25,265 nt of DNA, from NCBI GenBank assembly GCA_002788555.1, contig PFRL01000055.1, forward strand, positions 1 through 25,265, read 5' to 3'. Shown piece after piece: positions 8,950-17,794 of the stretch. Below the pieces are notes generated by a model. It saw only the letters and a list, made by a program, of their open reading frames with translations. It ran no database searches and was not told the DNA's origin. This DNA is from Parcubacteria group bacterium CG_4_9_14_0_2_um_filter_35_11. Lineage in GTDB: Bacteria; Patescibacteriota; Minisyncoccia; Minisyncoccales; GCA-002788555. Position 1 is the stretch's first letter; each line of letters opens with the position of its first letter. The position numbers and the translations under genes were made by a program.

Positions 8950-9023
8950 TGGTGGACCCGCGGGGACTTGAACCCCGGACTCATCCATGCCATGGATGCG
9001 TGTTACCACTATACCACGGGCCC
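8950..9023 (-). tRNA. tRNA-Ala(GGC)
   Basis: GGGCCCG acceptor with G3:U70, anticodon arm CATCC-ATGGCAT-GGATG, T arm CGGGG-TTCAAGT-CCCCG, A73, encoded CCA. Confidence 0.96.
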
Positions 9024-9062
9024 TCTTCGCTTCACTCAGAGTAGACTACAAGTTCACACTGA

Positions 9063-9081
9063 GGTGGTCTCTAAGACCACC
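9063..9081. repeat. Perfect hairpin GGTGGTCT-CTA-AGACCACC between the two tRNAs
   Basis: 8-bp stem and 3-nt loop, starting 4 nt past the tRNA-Arg discriminator. Confidence 0.5.
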
Positions 9082-9085
9082 GAAG

Positions 9086-9160
9086 TGCCCCCAGGAGGAC
9101 TCGAACCTCCAACCTTTCCCTTAGGACGGGACTGCTCTAATCCAATTGAGCTACGGGGGC
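9086..9160 (-). tRNA. tRNA-Arg(CCT), CCA not encoded
   Basis: GCCCCCG/TGGGGGC acceptor, D arm GCTC-AATTGGATTA-GAGC with the Arg identity A20, anticodon loop GT-CCT-AA, T arm GGAGG-TTCGAGT-CCTCC. Confidence 0.93.
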
Positions 9161-9171
9161 TTATTTATTAA

Positions 9172-9798
9172 TTAACGTTTTATAATTTTCTCTTCGTAGA
9201 ATTGATCAATTAATGATTGAATTAACTTCAAAAAATTACCTCCCTTTTTTATAGTTATTCTGCACATTCCATATTTAGTTTTACCTCTCGTACTCCCATC
9301 GTTAAATCTTATAATAAATCTATGCTTTGGAATTCTAGTAATTTTAGACCAATAATTTAAACATTCGGACCTATTCATACCAGAGAATATCCTCAAAGTT
9401 GGTTTAATATCTTTTTCTTGTACATTGAATACCTTTCTTAATACAAATAAGTAAGTTTGAATCATTCTTCCATCTGAATTAATGAATTCGCAACTTCTCT
9501 TACTCCCCTCTCCCCAGTACAGTATAGAGACAACGATAGCAAGCTCTCGATATTCGCCTCGCAATAATTCTTGGGCACGATCTCGCGCTTTTTGCCAATA
9601 AATTTTTGTTCGTTTTGCGCTCCCTCCTTGTTTAGCTTTTAATATAGGAATATATTTCGGCACAACTCTCACGCCTTGAATATGATACCATACGGTAGTT
9701 TTAGGTATGGATAGCTCTGCGACTAATTCATTAATACTATATCCTTTTCTTCTTAACTGTTCTAATTTTTTTATCTTATCTGTTGAATGAACTCTCAT
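9172..9798 (-). CDS. HTH plus LAGLIDADG-like protein adjacent to tRNA
   Basis: N-terminal HTH (LRRKGYSINELVAELSIPKTTVWYHI), then a degenerate LAGLIDADG helix (SILYWGEGSK), F.NSD..MI and YW....IP...F. Confidence 0.65.
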   Translation of the reverse strand: MRVHSTDKIKKLEQLRRKGYSINELVAELSIPKTTVWYHIQGVRVVPKYIPILKAKQGGSAKRTKIYWQKARDRAQELLRGEYRELAIVVSILYWGEGSKRSCEFINSDGRMIQTYLFVLRKVFNVQEKDIKPTLRIFSGMNRSECLNYWSKITRIPKHRFIIRFNDGSTRGKTKYGMCRITIKKGGNFLKLIQSLIDQFYEEKIIKR

Positions 9799-9804
9799 TA
9801 TTAT

Positions 9805-9813
9805 AGTGTATCA
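9805..9813 (-). promoter_or_regulatory. Candidate extended -10 promoter for a leaderless transcript of the LAGLIDADG-like gene
   Basis: Minus strand TG-A-TACACT (TGnTAnnnT) lies 6 nt before the ATG at 9798; no Shine-Dalgarno sequence seen. Confidence 0.45.
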
Positions 9814-9843
9814 CACAAACTAGAAAGAGCCAATGTCTTATTA

Positions 9844-9893
9844 TTAGAAGTTCGATGTTCTATTCGAAGTTCTATCCGTTGAACTACGAGAGC
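9844..9893 (-). pseudogene. 5'-half remnant of a tRNA-Arg-like gene with an internal 12-nt duplication
   Basis: GCTCTCG-TA-GTTC-AACGGATA-GAAC (acceptor 5' strand and intact D arm), tandem ATAGAACTTCGA/ATAGAACATCGA, then A-CT-TCT-AA. No T arm or 3' acceptor strand follows. Confidence 0.7.
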
Positions 9894-10437
9894 GAGACCT
9901 TAAAATCTCCTTGCCCTTACTTAAATTAGAAACAATAGTTATCTGGTCGTTTGGTATATAATGAAGACTATCTTCTTTATCTCTTATCGCTGTTTTCCGC
10001 AAAGTGAAATCCTCAACTTTTCCTTCTATATTTCCAATTTTGACTTTATCTCCTACCCGAAATTGGTCCTCAATTAAAATAAAAATCCCAGAAATATAAG
10101 CCTTAACTAAGGTCTGTGAGCCAAAACCTACTGCCACACCGATAATCCCAGCGCCGGTTAAAAGCGGGGTGATATTCACTCCAAATTCATCCAAAATCAT
10201 AAAAAGGACTACAAAGATTATTAAAATTCGCAAGGCATTGGTCAAAAGTTCATATAAGGTCTTGGTTCTTTTTTGAATTGCCTCTCCGTCTCTTATCTCG
10301 TATTTTTTCTCAGTGATTTTTTTTATCCATTTTTCTCCGAATTTCTTGAAAAAATGATAAAGAAAATAGCCAGAGACAGCAATGACTAAGATTTTTATTC
10401 CCGAAACGAAAAACCATTCCAAAAAATCTATTTCCAT
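9844..10437 (-). CDS. mscS: Small-conductance mechanosensitive channel (MscS family)
   Basis: TM segments, LLTGAGIIGVAVGFGSQ.L, GIFILIEDQFRVGD.V.I, G.VE..TLR.T..R and IPN. Confidence 0.92.
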   Translation of the reverse strand: MEIDFLEWFFVSGIKILVIAVSGYFLYHFFKKFGEKWIKKITEKKYEIRDGEAIQKRTKTLYELLTNALRILIIFVVLFMILDEFGVNITPLLTGAGIIGVAVGFGSQTLVKAYISGIFILIEDQFRVGDKVKIGNIEGKVEDFTLRKTAIRDKEDSLHYIPNDQITIVSNLSKGKEILRSRSRSSTDRTSNRTSNF

Positions 10438-10440
10438 AAC

Positions 10441-11373
10441 TTAAGTTTTTAATTTTTTAAGATACCTATAAGCCGAGAGGGCAGCTTTGGCTCCTTCACC
10501 GGCAGCAATTACTACTTGTTTATATTCTACATCACTGGCATCCCCAGCAGCAAAAAGACCTGGCATTGTTGTTTCGCAGGTTCTGAGATTAATTTCAATC
10601 TCATCTAACTTATTAATCAAATGATCAAACTTCACCAAATCTTTTACAAAAGAGGTGGCCGGGCGAGAACCAATTTCGACAAAAACCCCTTCGACATCTA
10701 TGGATTTCTTTTCCTTCAATTTTAAATCTTGATAAACTACCGAATTCACAAATTTATCTCCTCTTATTTCTTTCAAGAGAGCATTAGTTATGACTTCTAT
10801 TTTTCCTGTCTTTTTTGCCTTTTCCTGATTAGCCTCAAAGGCCTTCACTGCTGATCCATATTCTAAAATATAAATTTTTTTAGCAAAACCTGCTAAAAAC
10901 AAGGCTGCTTCAAAGCCAGCATTCCCTCCTCCGATTACGGCCACGCTCTTTCTTTTAAAGAGTGGCCCGTCGCAGGTCGTACAATAGCTCACTCCTTTGC
11001 CAATAAATTCTCTTTCTCCCGGAACTTTTAACGGCCTTGGGTCTACTCCGGAAGCAACAATTACTGCCTTTGATTGATACTCTTTTTTGTTCTCAGTAAG
11101 AATCTTAAAATTTTCGTTAGTCTTCCTTACTCTTACTACTATCTCTTTTTTGGTATCAATTTTAAATTTTTCAAGATGCACTTTAAATCTTTGGAGCAAG
11201 TCTGCCCCTGAAATTTCTGAAAAACCAGGGTAGTTTTCAACCGGCACAGTCTTCCTGGCTATTTGTCCACCAAACTCTTTAGTAATTAATAAAGTTTTTA
11301 GATTTTGCCTCGCCCCGTAAATTCCCGCAGTAATACCCGCGGGGCCTCCCCCGATTATAATTAAGTCATACAT
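10441..11373 (-). CDS. trxB: Thioredoxin-disulfide reductase
   Basis: IIGGGPAG FAD motif, GVSYCTTCDG redox CxxC, VIGGGNAG and GLFAAGD. Confidence 0.92.
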   Translation of the reverse strand: MYDLIIIGGGPAGITAGIYGARQNLKTLLITKEFGGQIARKTVPVENYPGFSEISGADLLQRFKVHLEKFKIDTKKEIVVRVRKTNENFKILTENKKEYQSKAVIVASGVDPRPLKVPGEREFIGKGVSYCTTCDGPLFKRKSVAVIGGGNAGFEAALFLAGFAKKIYILEYGSAVKAFEANQEKAKKTGKIEVITNALLKEIRGDKFVNSVVYQDLKLKEKKSIDVEGVFVEIGSRPATSFVKDLVKFDHLINKLDEIEINLRTCETTMPGLFAAGDASDVEYKQVVIAAGEGAKAALSAYRYLKKLKT

Positions 11374-11394
11374 AGTTGTTTGCTATTAGTTATT

Positions 11395-12672
11395 TTAATG
11401 GGTAGCACAAGAGATGCAAGGATCGTAAGCCCGGATGAGGGCTCGAATTTTTCTTATTCTCTCATCTGGTGAGACCTTTAAAAGATTACCAAGATAAACT
11501 TTCAGGTCCTCTTCAAGATTGTTTAAAAATTGAGCAGTAGGGGTAATAATATCACAATCTAAAATTCTACCATTTGTATCAACCTCAAAATAAGTGAAAA
11601 GGGTGCCTCTTGGTGCTTCCATTGCCGAGAGACTACTTCCTTTTTGAATTTTTAATTTAAAAGGTCTTTCTTTCAAATCTTGCTTTAAAATTTCCTGGAT
11701 TAATTTTCCTATTTTTTTAAGAAAATGCAGAATTTCTATTGTCTGACAAAAAAGATTATAGAAAGTATTCTCAAAGAATTTTTCACTTGTTAGATTATGA
11801 TTTTTAAAAAAAATCCCAAGACTTTTTTTTGCTTCGTCAGACAACAAATCTTGATTATTTTTAATTCTGGCAATGGCTCCGAGCATATAAGGCTTACCTA
11901 GGTGTTTTACCCTTTTAACTGGTGGCCTTCTAAGGTCCTCTTCTATTTTACTTGAAAAGAAATCACCGATAGAGAAGGTTTTTGGGGTAAGAATATACTC
12001 TCCTTGGTAAAAGGCATATTCCTTCTTCGGAGAGAGAGAAACGAAATTTGTTTTTCTTTGAAGAGAAGGGTAAGAAAGATTTTGAAAGGTTTTTACTAAA
12101 AATAAAGCGGCATCGTAAACCTCACTTAAATCTTTAGAGAGTTTTTGAATGTCTCTTTTATCGGGTAATTTGGAAAAACCTCCGATTTGAGGCCTCATAG
12201 GATGGATTGCTCTTCCACCGATTATTTCAGTTACTCTTAAAGAAAATTCTCTTATTTTTAGAGCGGCTCTTGCTTCTTTTTTAAATCTTTTCATTAAGTC
12301 TAAATCATTTTCGATATTGAAAAAATCAGGTAAGGCAAGAAAAAAAAGATGGAGAGCATGACTCTGGATAATCTGAGCAGCCAACAACAATTTCCTCAAA
12401 AGCGTGGTTAAAGACGAGGGTTTTACTTCTAAGGTATTCTCCAGGGCCCGACAGGCATTTAAAATATGAACAACCGGACAAATTCCGCAAATTCTGGAGA
12501 CAACTATCGGTACTTCCTCTACTCTTCTTCCAATTAAGATTCCTTCAATCTGACGAAGTCCCAATAAAGTCTGGAGTCTTAATTTCTCAATTTTCCCATC
12601 CCGACTTACCTCTGCCCAAAAACCGGCTTCTCCTTCGATTTTATGAATATGAGGAATAATAATTTTTTTCAT
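11395..12672 (-). CDS. [NiFe]-hydrogenase large subunit (group 3b-like)
   Basis: L1 RICGICPVVH, GGRAIHP, EAPRG and L2 YDPCISCATH ending at the stop codon. Confidence 0.93.
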   Translation of the reverse strand: MKKIIIPHIHKIEGEAGFWAEVSRDGKIEKLRLQTLLGLRQIEGILIGRRVEEVPIVVSRICGICPVVHILNACRALENTLEVKPSSLTTLLRKLLLAAQIIQSHALHLFFLALPDFFNIENDLDLMKRFKKEARAALKIREFSLRVTEIIGGRAIHPMRPQIGGFSKLPDKRDIQKLSKDLSEVYDAALFLVKTFQNLSYPSLQRKTNFVSLSPKKEYAFYQGEYILTPKTFSIGDFFSSKIEEDLRRPPVKRVKHLGKPYMLGAIARIKNNQDLLSDEAKKSLGIFFKNHNLTSEKFFENTFYNLFCQTIEILHFLKKIGKLIQEILKQDLKERPFKLKIQKGSSLSAMEAPRGTLFTYFEVDTNGRILDCDIITPTAQFLNNLEEDLKVYLGNLLKVSPDERIRKIRALIRAYDPCISCATH

Positions 12673-13421
12673 AAAAATTTCTTCACATCATCTTTTATAC
12701 CAAAAATCTCAAGGTTTTCTTCGATTTCCTCCTGGGAGCGTATTCTTTTCAAAAAAATTATAAAATTCTTGGGATTGATATTTTTAAAGATGCCTCGACA
12801 ACCGTAGCACATCACTCTTGATTTTGGACAAATTGCTCTACAACCAGCAAGAGTTATTGGACCAAGACAGGGTTCTTTTTTTCTTAAAAGACAATCTTTA
12901 GTCCCGGCAAGAGGACACTCAGTACAAACTGGTTTTTGAGGAATTTCTGGGATTTTTCCCTCAACGAGCTCATTAGCTAATCGTAAAAATTCTTCCCCAT
13001 TTATTGGGCAGCCGGGTATAGAAAAATCCACTTTGACAAAATTATCGATTTCTTTAATTTCAGGATTAGCAATGTTATCAACATGTTTATAAATAATCCG
13101 AATCGTTTTCTCCTTATTCTGGTAATTTTTCATTTCGGGTATCCCTCCCAAGGCAGCACAATTGCCAAGAGCCACCAATATCTTAGCTTTCTCTCTTGCT
13201 TCTTTTAAGATTTTAAAATCATCTTTGGTAATAGGGTTTCCTTCGATAAAAGCGATATCGAAAAGGTCACATTTTAAGGACTCTTCTTCTAAAAGACTGC
13301 ACTGAGCAAGCTCGACTTTTCGCAAAAAATTAAAGAATTTTTCACCTAAGTTAAATAAAGCAAACTGACATCCTTCGCAAGAAGTTAAAGAGAAAATGGC
13401 AATTTTGGGTTTTTTTCTCAT
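12669..13421 (-). CDS. [NiFe]-hydrogenase small subunit (group 3b delta-like)
   Basis: LTSCEGC, IEG, G.CA..GG, IPGCP and distal cluster ligands C..C...C...C.G.....C...C......CYGCRG; ATGA overlap with the large subunit. Confidence 0.92.
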   Translation of the reverse strand: MRKKPKIAIFSLTSCEGCQFALFNLGEKFFNFLRKVELAQCSLLEEESLKCDLFDIAFIEGNPITKDDFKILKEAREKAKILVALGNCAALGGIPEMKNYQNKEKTIRIIYKHVDNIANPEIKEIDNFVKVDFSIPGCPINGEEFLRLANELVEGKIPEIPQKPVCTECPLAGTKDCLLRKKEPCLGPITLAGCRAICPKSRVMCYGCRGIFKNINPKNFIIFLKRIRSQEEIEENLEIFGIKDDVKKFL

Positions 13422-14158
13422 TGAAGATTTTTAGGATTTCTGAAACTATTTATGGTTTTTTGGGTATATTTTTTAAGATTCTTTGCCTCTTTTTTATTTA
13501 AAACTTGGATGGCATAATTCCAATGAAAGGAAACTTGGTTGCCTAATTTAATTTTTGGCAAAATGTTTTTATCCCAAATAAGATATTTCTTTTTAAGGTT
13601 GCCAAGGTGGGGCTTTTTATTAAATGTTAACGGTTGGTATTCTACCTTTATCTCGTTTTGCGCCTTATCTATTTTTCTCACCTTGCCCCAGCCAATTCGA
13701 CAAAGGTCAACTAATTTTTTAGTAAGAACTATTCTGCCAGAGACGGAGCCTATTACAAGAACGTGAAAACTATGATGGGGCTTGGACCCTGGTGGAACTG
13801 TCTTGGCTCTTAATTTGGCTTCTTTTTCTTCCAGTAAACCCTCAGTAGAAAAATCATGAACAATCATTTTTTTTAATCCAGGAGTTTTTACTTTTTCTAA
13901 GAGTTGATTACCAATCCAATAGGCCTTAACCACTCTTTTTTCAAAAGGATCCTTGATTTTGTTAGCCCTGGCAATTAATTTATAGTAAGGAAAGGCTCCC
14001 TTAAAATTTTTTAGAAGTTTTCTAATTTCCCCTTTGGGAATGTCTTTGCCAGAAATATAATCCAAAAGAATTTTCTTTGCTGTTTTTTCTTGGGGGCCAC
14101 AAAAACCGAGTCGATGGGTAACAATTCCATAAAGAGCGGCTAATTTAAGACCGGACAT
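13418..14158 (-). CDS. DUF6390-like hydrogenase-associated protein
   Basis: LGFCGP, F.GA.PYY..IA, AYWIGN.LL, PHHSFHV, D.CRIGWG.V and VSFHW motifs; 4-nt overlap with the small subunit. Family name recalled, not searched. Confidence 0.7.
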   Translation of the reverse strand: MSGLKLAALYGIVTHRLGFCGPQEKTAKKILLDYISGKDIPKGEIRKLLKNFKGAFPYYKLIARANKIKDPFEKRVVKAYWIGNQLLEKVKTPGLKKMIVHDFSTEGLLEEKEAKLRAKTVPPGSKPHHSFHVLVIGSVSGRIVLTKKLVDLCRIGWGKVRKIDKAQNEIKVEYQPLTFNKKPHLGNLKKKYLIWDKNILPKIKLGNQVSFHWNYAIQVLNKKEAKNLKKYTQKTINSFRNPKNLQ

Positions 14159-14240
14159 AAACCCAGTAGTACAATTTATAATTTTAAATTCCCAAGTATC
14201 ACAATTATTATTCTAAATTGCACTATTGATTTTAGCATTT

Positions 14241-15152
14241 TTATGGTTGTAATACTGGATAAATTAATTTTTTAACCAATCGCCAACTTTCTTTAAGACC
14301 TATGACAAAAACTACTCCTGAAATCATAAAAAAACCTGCCAAAATTTCCTGGAAACTCACTTTCCCACCAGAAATCAAAGAAACTAAAGTGGTCACTGGA
14401 GATCCCAAAAGTAAGATTACTGTTGCTTGAGAAACTGGTATATATTTAAGCCCACTATACCAAGTTATTACATAACCAAAAAGGAGAATTGAGGTAACTA
14501 TTACCCAACCAATTTGCTTTAAAACAAGGTCGGATAATAAAGGCAACTGACTAGTAGCTCCAAAAAAAATCAAAATAAACAAAGAACCGAAAAACATTCG
14601 AGCCCAAGCTACAGTCCTACCTTGAAGTTTTTCTGACCTTAAAACGTACTTAGAAATCGTATTCTCTACCGCCCAAAAAAGAGTGGCTGAAAAAACCAAA
14701 AAATCTCCTAAGTTTGGCGAGAAAGTTAACTTTTTCAACAATAATAGACTGCCCAAAATTAAAAATAGTCCTCCCAAAAAAAACTTTTTATCAATCTTTT
14801 CTTTCAAAAAGACAAAACTCAGGACTGCTACATAGATAAACATTGTCTTGTGCCAAAAAGCTGCTTGAGCCGGACCAGTTAGGGAAAGTCCTTTGAAAAA
14901 TAGTAAAAAAGGAATACTTCCCCCTACTAAACCAATAATTATTAATAAGAACCAATGTTTCTTAGTTAAATGTTTTAAGACCTTCCAATCCTTGAACGCT
15001 AATAAAACTCCTGTCAGAAAAAGAGCGACAATAGAATTTTTCAGCCAAGCAAAAATATAAGGGTTGATAACGCTTACCCCGAATTTGTTAATAAAAATTG
15101 AAAAGCCCGAAATAATGGCAGTAAAAATGACTAAGAAGTAACCTTTTTTCAT
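14241..15152 (-). CDS. EamA/DMT family transporter
   Basis: About 10 hydrophobic segments in two repeats, including LSFVFLKEKI and W..GLK....S.AT. Confidence 0.88.
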   Translation of the reverse strand: MKKGYFLVIFTAIISGFSIFINKFGVSVINPYIFAWLKNSIVALFLTGVLLAFKDWKVLKHLTKKHWFLLIIIGLVGGSIPFLLFFKGLSLTGPAQAAFWHKTMFIYVAVLSFVFLKEKIDKKFFLGGLFLILGSLLLLKKLTFSPNLGDFLVFSATLFWAVENTISKYVLRSEKLQGRTVAWARMFFGSLFILIFFGATSQLPLLSDLVLKQIGWVIVTSILLFGYVITWYSGLKYIPVSQATVILLLGSPVTTLVSLISGGKVSFQEILAGFFMISGVVFVIGLKESWRLVKKLIYPVLQP

Positions 15153-15156
15153 ATAC

Positions 15157-15357
15157 TTATTTCTTGATTAGATTAATTATTTCTTTTGCTTCTTTTTTTG
15201 TTATTTTTCCGACAATAAAGTTGTTTTGTAAAATTACGTAATCTCCTACTTTCACTCTAATTAAAGAGCCTCTAACCTCTTTTTGTCGACCATCTTCTTC
15301 TGTAATAATCTTTTGATTTTTGATTTTCTTTATCTTGGCTGGTAAAGTAATACACAT
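15157..15357 (-). CDS. hypC: HypC/HupF family hydrogenase maturation chaperone
   Basis: Start reassigned to MCITLPAKI (15357), giving the obligatory N-terminal Cys; OB-fold KVGDYVI motif. Confidence 0.82.
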   Translation of the reverse strand: MCITLPAKIKKIKNQKIITEEDGRQKEVRGSLIRVKVGDYVILQNNFIVGKITKKEAKEIINLIKK

Positions 15358-15390
15358 TTTATATTTGTTTTCTGTTGGTATACCCAAGAA

Positions 15391-16908
15391 CTAATAAATA
15401 TCCTTCTGGTTTTGATAACTGATGGCTTCGGCTAACTGTTCCCGATTAATATCTTCTTTACCTTCAAGGTCGCTAATGGTCCTAGCTACCTTTAGAATTT
15501 TGTGGTAAGAGCGGGGAGAGAGACTCAATCTCCGCATTGCCTGGCGCAAAAGGTCTTTGGAGCAAATATCAATTTTACAATATTCTTGAATTTTTTGTAA
15601 CGGTATCTCACTATTCAAAAATCCTCTGGATTCTTGGATGGTCCTAGATTCTTCTACTCTTCTCCGAATATTTTTACTCTCTTCTGCTACGATTTTTGAG
15701 GTCAATTTCTCAAAACCAATTCTCGGGACTTCAATTTTGATATCAATCCTATCAAGGATTGGTCCAGAAATCTTCCGGCGGTACCTTGTAATCTGAGAAG
15801 GTAAGCAAGTACATTCTTTTTGAGGATCGCTGAGATAACCGCAGGGACAAGGGTTAGAAGCGGCAACCAGAGTAAATCTGGCAGGAAAAATTACGCTCTC
15901 CTCGGCTCGCGCCACCAAGACCTTCCCATCTTCCATGGGTTGGCGAAGGGCCTCAATTACATCGCGGTGAAATTCTGGAAATTCATCTAGAAATAAAACG
16001 CCACGGTGAGCTAAAGTAATTTCTCCTGGACGAATATGGGAGCCTCCGCCAATCAAAGCTGCAGCCGAAGAAGAGTGGTGAGGACTTCGAAAAGGGCGTT
16101 TAATTATAATAGAGTTCTTTGAGGCTAAAAGCCCAGCAACACTATAGATTTTTGTTACTTCTAAAATTTCTTCTTTGGCCATCCTTGGCAAAATTGAGGG
16201 GAGAGCCCGAGAAAGTAAAGTTTTACCTGAGCCTGGTGGCCCCATCATAAAAATATTATGCCCACCGGCAGCAGCAATCTCCAAGGCTCTTTTGATGCTT
16301 TCTTGCCCTTGAACATAGGCAAAATCAATCTCAGGATATTCTTGGGCAGGAATATCCTCTGCTCCTTTACCAGTTAGTATATAGTTTTCTGTTTTCCCTT
16401 CTAAAATTTTAAGAAGACCCTTAAGGTTTTCTACTGCTAAAATTCGAAGCCCTTTTACCAATTCTGCTTCTTTCTGATTTTCCTTTGGTAAAACTAAAAG
16501 CTTATTTTCTTGCCTTGCTAAAATGGCTGTTGAGAGTGCTCCTCTTACTTTTCGTATTGAGCCATCTAAAGAAAGTTCTCCCATAAAAATTTTATCACTT
16601 GTCTTAAACTTTTTTACTTGTCCCGATGCCAATAAAAAACCCAAGGCTATCGGAAGGTCATAAATCGCTCCTTGTTTTTTTATCTCGGCTGGAGCAAGAT
16701 TCACAGTAATGCGACGATTATGATGCTGAGGTGGCTTCCCTCCGCTATTTTTAATTGCCGAGGAAACTCTTTCTTTTGACTCTTCTACCGCTTTATCGGG
16801 AAGACCTACAATAGAAAAAGCATGAAGACCTGAGGTAAAATCAACTTCAACTTCGATTATTCTGGCATCGAGCCCAATAAAAGCTGAGGAAAAAATTTTA
16901 ACAGCCAT
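15391..16908 (-). CDS. comM: ComM/YifB Mg-chelatase-like AAA+ ATPase
   Basis: IVGLPD..V.ES.ERV, NLAPA..KK.G..YDLPIA, Walker A GPPGSGKT, PFRSPHH, GVLFLDEF and NPCPCG. Start likely MAVKIF at 16908. Confidence 0.95.
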   Translation of the reverse strand: MAVKIFSSAFIGLDARIIEVEVDFTSGLHAFSIVGLPDKAVEESKERVSSAIKNSGGKPPQHHNRRITVNLAPAEIKKQGAIYDLPIALGFLLASGQVKKFKTSDKIFMGELSLDGSIRKVRGALSTAILARQENKLLVLPKENQKEAELVKGLRILAVENLKGLLKILEGKTENYILTGKGAEDIPAQEYPEIDFAYVQGQESIKRALEIAAAGGHNIFMMGPPGSGKTLLSRALPSILPRMAKEEILEVTKIYSVAGLLASKNSIIIKRPFRSPHHSSSAAALIGGGSHIRPGEITLAHRGVLFLDEFPEFHRDVIEALRQPMEDGKVLVARAEESVIFPARFTLVAASNPCPCGYLSDPQKECTCLPSQITRYRRKISGPILDRIDIKIEVPRIGFEKLTSKIVAEESKNIRRRVEESRTIQESRGFLNSEIPLQKIQEYCKIDICSKDLLRQAMRRLSLSPRSYHKILKVARTISDLEGKEDINREQLAEAISYQNQKDIY

Positions 16909-16933
16909 ATTTAAGAATAATTTAAAATCCTTT

Positions 16934-17794
16934 TTATATAATAGGGCGACAGGCAGCAATTAAAGTACCGGGACCAGAATTCGCTCCTACTATAGGAGGA
17001 GCTAGAGAAACAAAAGCAACTTCTGCTTTTAATTCTCTTTCTATTTTTTCTTTTAAACTATAAGCTAACCCAATATTATTAGTGTAATTTATTCCAACCT
17101 TCATGTTAGTTTTATAATATCTTCTAATTTTCTGAGAATGACATTGAAGTTGACGAAAAATAGCCTTAAAAACATCCCCACTTCCAAAATTAAATCCAGC
17201 GAACCCCACTACTCCTTTTTTGATTCCAACAATAGGCTGAATACCCAGGCTCTTTAATGTTTGGAAAAGCCAAGCCTGTTTTTGACTCATTCTTCCTATT
17301 TTTTCTACCCAAAAAGTATTTTTTAAAAAAGCGACCATTTTAATTTCTCGCTTTAGACTTTCGAGTCTCCTTTTGATTTCTTTTATCTCTTGATGTCCCT
17401 TAATTAATTCTAATGCTTTTAAAACAAAAAGACCTTCGCTGGCTGCCGCATGTCCCGAATCGATTAATTCTATCTTTAAAGAATCCGACATAAACCCTTT
17501 GGCTTGAAATGCCGAATTGTAGGTACCGGATAAGCGACTACTTAAAGTGATAACGACAACTTTCTGAAATCCCTCTAATAATCTTTTGTATGCTTTAATA
17601 AAGTCCCCTGGCGATGGGGCTGAGGTTTTAGGATGGGCTTTAGTTTCTTCCATTATCTGATAAAGGTTTTTCTCTGGAAATTTCTCTGCTTCTGCGAAAA
17701 AGAGTTTTGTCTTGACTATTTCTATTTGATATTCTCTGATGATTTTTTCTGGTAGAGAACAAATATCATCTACAACGATGCCAATATTATCCAT
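16934..17794 (-). CDS. DegV/FakB family fatty-acid-binding protein (copy 3)
   Basis: KTSAPS, SSRLSGTYNSA, IDS, GRM and VGANSGPG motifs. Confidence 0.9.
   Translation of the reverse strand: MDNIGIVVDDICSLPEKIIREYQIEIVKTKLFFAEAEKFPEKNLYQIMEETKAHPKTSAPSPGDFIKAYKRLLEGFQKVVVITLSSRLSGTYNSAFQAKGFMSDSLKIELIDSGHAAASEGLFVLKALELIKGHQEIKEIKRRLESLKREIKMVAFLKNTFWVEKIGRMSQKQAWLFQTLKSLGIQPIVGIKKGVVGFAGFNFGSGDVFKAIFRQLQCHSQKIRRYYKTNMKVGINYTNNIGLAYSLKEKIERELKAEVAFVSLAPPIVGANSGPGTLIAACRPII

Follow-up and report, generated by a model that had tools for sequence, protein, structure and literature searches.

A HypC–EamA–DUF6390 gene module accompanies [NiFe] hydrogenases of Patescibacteria in genomes where HypD, HypE and HypF are not found

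Our data show that a [NiFe] hydrogenase of Parcubacteria group bacterium CG_4_9_14_0_2_um_filter_35_11, a member of the Patescibacteria (Candidate Phyla Radiation, CPR), is encoded together with a HypC-type chaperone, an EamA-type permease of the drug/metabolite transporter (DMT) superfamily, and a protein of the DUF6390 family. The genes lie on a 25,265-nucleotide contig (PFRL01000055.1 of assembly GCA_002788555.1; our contig C45), which we analyzed at its full length and refer to as the window. Sequence and model comparisons identify the rear domain of the DUF6390 protein as a true homolog of HypC. DUF6390-bearing lineages without HypD, HypE and HypF probably obtain the metal center of their hydrogenases by an undescribed route. 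On the sequence evidence, we see about an even chance that DUF6390 acts in this route as a HypC-derived receiver or carrier of an importer-supplied active-site metal unit, standing in for HypD, HypE and HypF.

The window's DUF6390 protein matches the Pfam family PF19927 across residues 2-238 (138.5 bits; cut-off 25). AlphaFold predicts a helical region (residues 1-153) followed by a beta barrel (156-220) and a C-terminal helix (222-237), with high confidence (predicted local distance difference test (pLDDT) = 93.5; predicted template modeling score (pTM) = 0.91). When we compared the rear domain with Thermococcus HypC (2z1c_A) using VIA-align, the two structures aligned over 71/71 residues with a root-mean-square deviation of 1.8 Å (Z = 6.8). 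A profile comparison against an alignment of 30 HypC proteins in hhalign gave a probability of 95.6% (E = 1.2e-8, 66 columns), and paired DUF6390 Cys153 with HypC Cys2 and His212 with the position of HypC His51. The match of the rear domain to the HypC family PF01455 is weak (15.1 bits, under the cut-off of 28.5). For HypC, residues C2 and H51 are proposed to coordinate iron jointly with HypD C41, and their exchange abolishes activity (PMC12134894). The DUF6390 rear domain shares the oligonucleotide/oligosaccharide-binding (OB) barrel and C-terminal helix of the HypC/HybG/HupF/HoxL family (PF01455; structures 2z1c, 3vyr, 2ot2), of which the stand-alone HypC encoded in the window is itself a member. 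In contrast to that family, DUF6390 carries its conserved cysteine behind a 150-residue helical domain with an invariant cysteine and a histidine cluster of its own; Cys153 is thus internal, and DUF6390 has no free N-terminal cysteine as in HypC. HupF also extends HypC, but at the C-terminus rather than the N-terminus.

We aligned 81 DUF6390 sequences from Patescibacteria, DPANN and Actinomycetota and found that Cys20, His129, Cys153, His212 and Trp213 are invariant (81/81), and that His128 and His132 are each kept in 79 of the 81. An earlier note on this DNA, made from the sequence alone, had pointed to the motifs FCGP, HHSFH, LCRIGW and FHW as potential metal ligands; all four are present and coincide with the invariant positions of the family. 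What that note overlooked is that DUF6390 contains a HypC-homologous domain in which both the cysteine and the histidine are kept, and that a flavoprotein gene of the thioredoxin-reductase (TrxR) type is adjacent. Cys20, the histidines at 128, 129 and 132, and the cysteine and histidine of the rear domain probably form one putative metal site. The front domain, modeled alone with a pLDDT of 86.3, could not be matched convincingly by VIA-align to any of 48,161 solved chains (best Z = 5.1, to carrier-protein-like helices, not significant), and a Foldseek search of the whole model against the PDB returned only OB-fold proteins, which match the rear domain. We therefore recognize no known fold in the predicted front domain, which by itself does not make the fold a new one. 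We found no mention of DUF6390 in the literature searched. In several proteins DUF6390 is fused to other domains: it follows an XRE-type helix-turn-helix (HTH) region in a 367-amino acid protein whose gene lies within a hydrogenase cluster, with a Nik/Opp-type ABC system on either side, and elsewhere follows a region named GntR-type or precedes a NUDIX domain (fusions P0220, P0237 and AlphaFold Database entry A0A7V5EYB9). These architectures suggest that DUF6390 can act as a ligand-sensing domain.

According to reviews, anaerobic synthesis of the hydrogenase cofactor requires the six Hyp proteins (PMC12134894, PMC12130793). The source assembly comprises 543,537 bases in 58 contigs and is 87.62% complete; profile searches of it detected no HypD, HypE, HypA or HypB, and the HypF profile matched only stand-alone acylphosphatase, TsaC-like and TsaD-like genes. 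The absence of HypA, HypB, HypD, HypE and HypF from the neighborhood, as claimed earlier, extends to the whole assembly, where the HypF-profile matches are all housekeeping-type genes.

To place this absence in context, we analyzed 401 Patescibacteria genomes, of which 81 encode a NiFe large subunit and 34 encode DUF6390. Completeness is 90% or more in 30 of these 34, and assemblies of one, three and four contigs are among them. HypD was found in none of the 34, and HypE, HypF and HypB in none over cut-off. The 81 hydrogenase-bearing genomes fall into three sets. Thirty-three combine the large subunit with DUF6390, with no HypD and with neither HypE nor HypF over cut-off. Seventeen encode HypD and no DUF6390 (HypD is full length in 14, and HypE is found in 15). 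The remaining 31 have neither DUF6390 nor HypD, and also no HypE; the search for HypF covered the first set. A custom DUF6390 profile found no DUF6390 in the 48 hydrogenase genomes assigned as lacking it. Because HypD was found in the 17 other genomes, and HypE in 15 of them, hyp genes are detectable in Patescibacteria. The overlap between DUF6390 and HypD is zero (hypergeometric p = 3.3e-5, uncorrected for kinship).

We made two further observations on these genomes. In several genomes with neither DUF6390 nor HypD, an unclassified protein of 250-260 amino acids is encoded in the place of DUF6390 (L104:10398-11174, L105:10509-11294, L108:10007-10765, L110:4915-5676), and loci L102, L103 and L115 have an unclassified protein of ~205 amino acids there. 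These orphan proteins adjoin EamA and/or HypC and show HypC-like motifs by eye (GQNIFHHFGV; CLGKIGKIVE...GDYVAVHF). Comparison with DUF6390 in hhalign gave a probability of ~1%, and Pfam searches gave no match; in Atlas features, DUF6390 and HypC clusters rank second to fourth (0.82-0.85), which we take as a lead only. Separately, a short HypA of 84-85 amino acids that begins MHD or MHE and covers HypA positions 1-70 only, without the zinc finger, is encoded after the large-subunit gene in several loci (L020:3195-3449 in genome G226; L007, L014, L015). This mini-HypA is found at E <= 0.001 in 16 of the 34 module-bearing genomes, the two closest relatives among them; nine of the 16 exceed the family cut-off. 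It is absent from the window's assembly.

A comparison within one family (f71) shows the module in exchange with canonical maturation genes. In genome G356, hypC-EamA-DUF6390 is convergent on the large- and small-subunit genes, and in G185 and G276 the same place is taken by hypC-hypD-hypE plus a hypC and a mini-HypF gene. Between G356 and these two genomes, the identities are 93% and 88% for the large subunit and 90% and 87% for the small subunit; the higher identity is to a genome of another genus. DNA homology between the loci ends at the stop codon of the large subunit. Shortened HypF proteins of 418-472 amino acids (L111:5825-7243, L113:4311-5567) occur in Patescibacteria that encode HypD and HypE; by eye, they comprise only the Kae1-like C-terminal part.

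We could judge gene neighborhoods at 63 DUF6390 loci. An EamA permease lies within two open reading frames (ORFs) of DUF6390 in 59 of these (94%), HypC within four ORFs in 41, and the large subunit within six ORFs in 55. In one case (P0252, on two contigs), EamA and DUF6390 are fused into a single protein of 563 amino acids, encoded beside a HycI-like ORF and hydrogenase genes. Two loci, L004 (G264) and L011 (G133), have ~10 kb of other genes between the small- and large-subunit genes, and there HypC-EamA-DUF6390 still adjoins the small subunit.

Beyond Patescibacteria and DPANN, ABC importers take the place of the permease, and DUF6390 adjoins HypC and such an importer in three cases. In a Chloroflexota metagenome-assembled genome (MAG), HypC-DUF6390 is followed by a family-5 (NikA/OppA-type) ABC importer; on a metagenomic contig, the HTH-DUF6390 fusion is flanked by family-5 systems; and in an Acidimicrobiia MAG, DUF6390 is followed by an importer that combines a fused double permease with a TOBE-domain ATPase. 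No HypD, HypE or HypF was found in the Chloroflexota and Acidimicrobiia MAGs, whose completeness is not known, and no HypD in five DPANN genomes with the module. Mycobacteria present the opposite arrangement: HypD, HypE and HypF are present in 3/3 tested, with no importer adjoining DUF6390, and Mycobacterium lehmannii has the order hycI-hypC-hypF-DUF6390-hypC-SIS-hypE-hypD beside a 609-amino acid large subunit. In this pattern, HypD, HypE and HypF are missing where DUF6390 occurs with an importer, and a full Hyp set is present where it occurs without one. The Chloroflexota DUF6390 cluster (L071:3436-5176) also has NifU-like, DUF5947 and DUF6084 genes between a ~600-amino acid large subunit and HycI.

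The stand-alone HypC of the module begins with Met-Cys (MCITLP) at position 15357, inside a longer ORF that starts with TTG. It matches PF01455 with 54.6 bits (cut-off 28.5), and the stricter TIGR00074 with 39.9, under the cut-off of 48. Cys2 is invariant in 30 HypC orthologs. At the position of His51 (GDYVLVHxG), the protein has glutamine (GDYVILQNN), and across 60 orthologs this position is often Q, S, K, Y or N in module HypCs and is His in HypD-linked HypCs. The earlier observation that this HypC keeps Cys2 but has Gln for the usual His is borne out. The predicted complex of DUF6390 with HypC (score 0.09; mark 0.32) carries no weight either way.

In the earlier note's proposal, maturation would follow a non-canonical route in which DUF6390 is a HypC-linked scaffold and EamA may import nickel or a cofactor precursor. 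Such a route is supported by the absence of hyp genes here and in 33 related genomes, by the mutual exclusion of DUF6390 with HypD and HypE, and by the adjacency and fusion of the permease. Its mechanism, in the sense of metal binding, transport direction, cargo and transfer, is our inference from the observed genes, their homology and distribution, the invariant residues and the fusion. HypC-EamA-DUF6390 would be the hydrogenase's own reduced maturation module, replacing HypD, HypE and HypF. The rear domain of DUF6390 would retain HypC's iron-holding residues, with Cys153 for Cys2 and His212 for His51, and the helical front domain would contribute Cys20 and the cluster of His128, His129 and His132. 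The permease, or the ABC importer in other phyla, would bring in something that the cell cannot make. DUF6390 would take this cargo on the cytoplasmic side and pass it to the apo large subunit, either directly or via the small HypC. Our favored cargo is the iron unit or precursors of its CN and CO ligands, with nickel as the alternative; because the module lacks any enzyme-like domain, uptake of the iron unit or ligand precursors is the simplest reading. A more specific version seems to us rather unlikely as it stands: that Patescibacteria, DPANN and some Chloroflexota and Acidimicrobiia salvage a ready-made iron-ligand unit, or a CN/CO precursor, from a host or the surroundings via a DUF6390-docked importer, and that DUF6390 and HypC place it in working [NiFe] hydrogenases without HypD, HypE and HypF.

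Several points weigh against a carrier role for DUF6390 in place of HypD, HypE and HypF. The genomes are related, so that our counts overstate independence, and the 31 hydrogenase-bearing Patescibacteria with neither HypD nor a recognizable DUF6390 stand outside the scheme. The locus swap depends on a 5.1-kb contig of G356, a 90%-complete MAG. The two closest relatives of the source genome carry HypC-DUF6390 without a permease between them, and the conserved polar residues of the permease include no cysteine and only one histidine. In mycobacteria, DUF6390 shares a cluster with HypC, HypD, HypE and HypF, and so does not by itself substitute for HypD. Nothing in the module resembles an enzyme that makes cyanide or CO. 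Finally, a role in nickel sensing would account at least equally well for the Nik/Opp-type binding proteins encoded beside DUF6390 and for the DNA-binding fusions.

The strongest competing explanation, which we judge unlikely, is nickel handling. DUF6390 would act on nickel as a receiver, chaperone or sensor: it would take the metal, or a complex of it, from the permease, load the large subunit via its HypC-like docking domain, and replace HypA, HypB or SlyD rather than HypD, HypE and HypF. This fits the lack of HypB over cut-off in all 34 genomes and the state of HypA, which is absent here and present in 16 of the 34 only as the 84-amino acid form without a zinc finger. The family-5 importers that flank DUF6390 in the Chloroflexota locus and on the metagenomic contig point the same way, as do the HTH and GntR-type fusions, and the invariant set rich in cysteine and histidine would suit nickel. 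However, a nickel role leaves unexplained both the exclusion between DUF6390 and HypD/HypE and the swap of hypD, hypE and mini-hypF for EamA-DUF6390, and the origin of the Fe(CN)2CO unit would stay unexplained as well. The conserved cysteine and histidine of the rear domain correspond to HypC's iron ligands, and the Acidimicrobiia importer is not of the Nik type; we read its architecture as like that of binding-protein ABC importers, including iron(III) carriers. To our knowledge, no DMT permease carries nickel.

It is also conceivable, and in our estimate improbable, that DUF6390 is an ordinary additional chaperone: an enzyme-specific HypC paralog, comparable to HybG, HupF or HoxL, whose task is to hold or protect the apo large subunit. 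In that case the permease would be unrelated, and the hydrogenases would either be non-working or receive their cofactor from an unlinked, unrecognized pathway. The HypC homology of DUF6390, its occurrence alongside a full Hyp set in mycobacteria, and the 31 genomes with neither HypD nor DUF6390 are all compatible with this view, and Jaffe et al, 2020 (PMC7304191) left the function of two-subunit CPR enzymes open. Against it, the permease-DUF6390 fusion and the 94% adjacency are hard to ascribe to chance, the invariant cysteine and histidine cluster of the front domain would be superfluous in a mere holder, all four Ni-Fe cysteines are retained across many lineages, and the overlap with HypD and HypE is zero. 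We reject a third explanation as very improbable, namely that hyp and beta/gamma genes lie in the unassembled 12% of the genome: 87.62% completeness and 58 contigs leave room for it, but the same absence repeats in 33 other DUF6390-bearing genomes, near-complete and few-contig assemblies among them, and hyp genes were readily detected in 17 further Patescibacteria.

The five module genes all lie on the minus strand within 15357..11395, as judged from ORF calls and Pfam profile matches (Table 1), which agrees with the earlier description of five co-directional genes. DUF6390 and the small subunit overlap by 4 nt, as do the small and large subunits; 4 nt separate hypC from EamA, and 82 nt separate EamA from DUF6390. 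Scanning positions 9000-17000 revealed nothing resembling a terminator on the minus (coding) strand, and promoter-like matches in the same interval were uninformative, the DNA being AT-rich. The stretch is present in 24 groundwater or aquifer DNA runs, and no RNA run is listed for it.

Table 1. Hydrogenase module genes, DUF6390 domains and the adjacent flavoprotein gene in the window.
Feature	Position	Strand	Description
hypC	15357..15157	-	66 aa, HypC-type chaperone; PF01455 (HupF_HypC)
EamA/DMT permease	15152..14241	-	303 aa, two EamA repeats; PF00892, 6.1e-33
DUF6390 protein	14158..13418	-	246 aa; PF19927, 138.5 bits
DUF6390 N-terminal all-helical domain (predicted), residues 1-150	13709..14158	-	invariant Cys20-Gly21; His128/His129/His132
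DUF6390 C-terminal HypC-homologous OB domain and helix (predicted), residues 153-237	13448..13702	-	invariant Cys153, His212-Trp213
[NiFe] hydrogenase small subunit	13421..12669	-	250 aa; Oxidored_q6, PF01058
[NiFe] hydrogenase large subunit	12672..11395	-	425 aa; NiFeSe_Hases, PF00374
Thioredoxin-reductase-type flavoprotein	11373..10441	-	310 aa; Pyr_redox_2, CTTC site

The catalytic subunits themselves appear intact. The large subunit has the motifs RICGICPVVH (L1) and DPCISCATH (L2), with all four Ni-Fe cysteines, and the ligand motifs are also intact in relatives, with the four cysteines kept across many lineages. It stops directly after the histidine of DPCISCATH (DPCxxCxxH) with no C-terminal extension, and 64 of 79 related large subunits end at the same residue; because the protein ends at the last ligand motif, no endopeptidase processing should be needed. 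In tblastn searches with HycI-like ORFs from related loci as queries, no HycI-like protease was matched in the assembly. The small subunit has 12 cysteines with the spacing expected for three Fe-S clusters. The best NCBIfam matches are sulfhydrogenase alpha for the large subunit (232.8 bits; cut-off 880) and sulfhydrogenase delta for the small subunit (160.2 bits; cut-off 500). Because these scores are far below the equivalog cut-offs, we describe the enzyme, by sequence, only as group-3b-related at the level of the clade, not as a verified member of group 3b; it is a two-subunit and predicted cytoplasmic enzyme. No beta or gamma subunit was matched in the assembly by tblastn with queries from related loci, and these subunits are present in many relatives. 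Related clusters vary in their subunits. Five of them (L005, L006, L009, L013, L017) have a short small subunit of 159-181 amino acids and a weakly HycI-like ORF of 124-143 amino acids between DUF6390 and the large subunit. Five others (L025, L027, L029, L033, L063) have large-subunit ORFs of 563-566 amino acids with no labeled small-subunit ORF nearby, which may be small-large fusions.

The earlier statement that no flavoprotein is encoded nearby is wrong: the Pyr_redox_2/TrxR-type gene begins 21 nt past the large-subunit stop. Its product scores 325.2 bits against TIGR01292 (cut-off 343.45), contains a CTTC site, and is the sole TrxR copy in the assembly. As judged by eye, the HRRxxxR motif for NADPH is replaced by EYGSAVK (IYILEYGSAVKAFE). 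In the two closest module-bearing relatives, TrxR is encoded on another contig, and across the judgeable loci a flavoprotein of the TrxR type or of a 412-amino acid type lies within four ORFs of DUF6390 in 20/63. The latter type is a 412-418-amino acid protein with Pyr_redox_2 and Rubredoxin_C/Reductase_C domains, encoded beside EamA-DUF6390 at L005:6110-7348 and by counterparts in L006, L009, L013 and L017. The TrxR-type neighbor is a possible electron partner of the hydrogenase. We considered reading its adjacency as a path from H2 to thioredoxin and treated this as unproven, since neither of the two closest relatives keeps the adjacency; other lineages show it again. A CPYC glutaredoxin-like gene is located on contig C19 of the same assembly.

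Compared with known systems, the presumed task of DUF6390 resembles that of the HypC-HypD scaffold with HypE and HypF (PMC12134894, PMC12130793), in that active-site iron held by cysteine and histidine would be handed to the apo large subunit. The module differs from the canonical Fe(CN)2CO line in having no HypD, [4Fe-4S] motifs, HypE, HypF or ATP-using domain, and in including a membrane permease. Among characterized enzymes, the Pyrococcus furiosus sulfhydrogenases I and II (HydBGDA and ShyBCDA; group 3b) provide the best family matches and agree in length, L1/L2 motifs and three-cluster small subunit, but the window's subunits score far under the equivalog cut-offs, lack a C-terminal extension, and have no beta/gamma partners in the assembly. 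The enzyme belongs to the same clade and phylum as the group-3b-related "hyd1/hyd2" hydrogenases of CPR bacteria (Jaffe et al, 2020, BMC Biol; PMC7304191), and shares with hyd1 a full-length (250-amino acid) small subunit; the window has no beta/gamma genes. Near these hydrogenases, that study saw PF07992 flavoproteins and a hypC-like family (fam002), with beta/gamma subunits missing in some; its section on these genes mentions neither a permease nor a DUF6390-like protein, and the word "maturation" does not occur in the paper. Our analysis also shows that the 81 genomes fall into three sets, that maturation loci are swapped beside closely related hydrogenases, that the module HypC often lacks the histidine, and that importer presence corresponds to the absence of HypD, HypE and HypF.

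Whole lineages thus retain intact catalytic subunits without HypD, HypE and HypF, beside a small gene set that recurs with them. If this gene set suffices, the Ni-Fe(CN)2CO site would be loaded in a far simpler way than in the canonical pathway, or part of the cofactor would be taken up. The module would then represent a minimal maturation kit of three genes and about 2 kb, relevant to hydrogenase engineering, and would bear on how H2 metabolism is read from the genomes of ultra-small symbionts and on the dependence of these organisms on their hosts.

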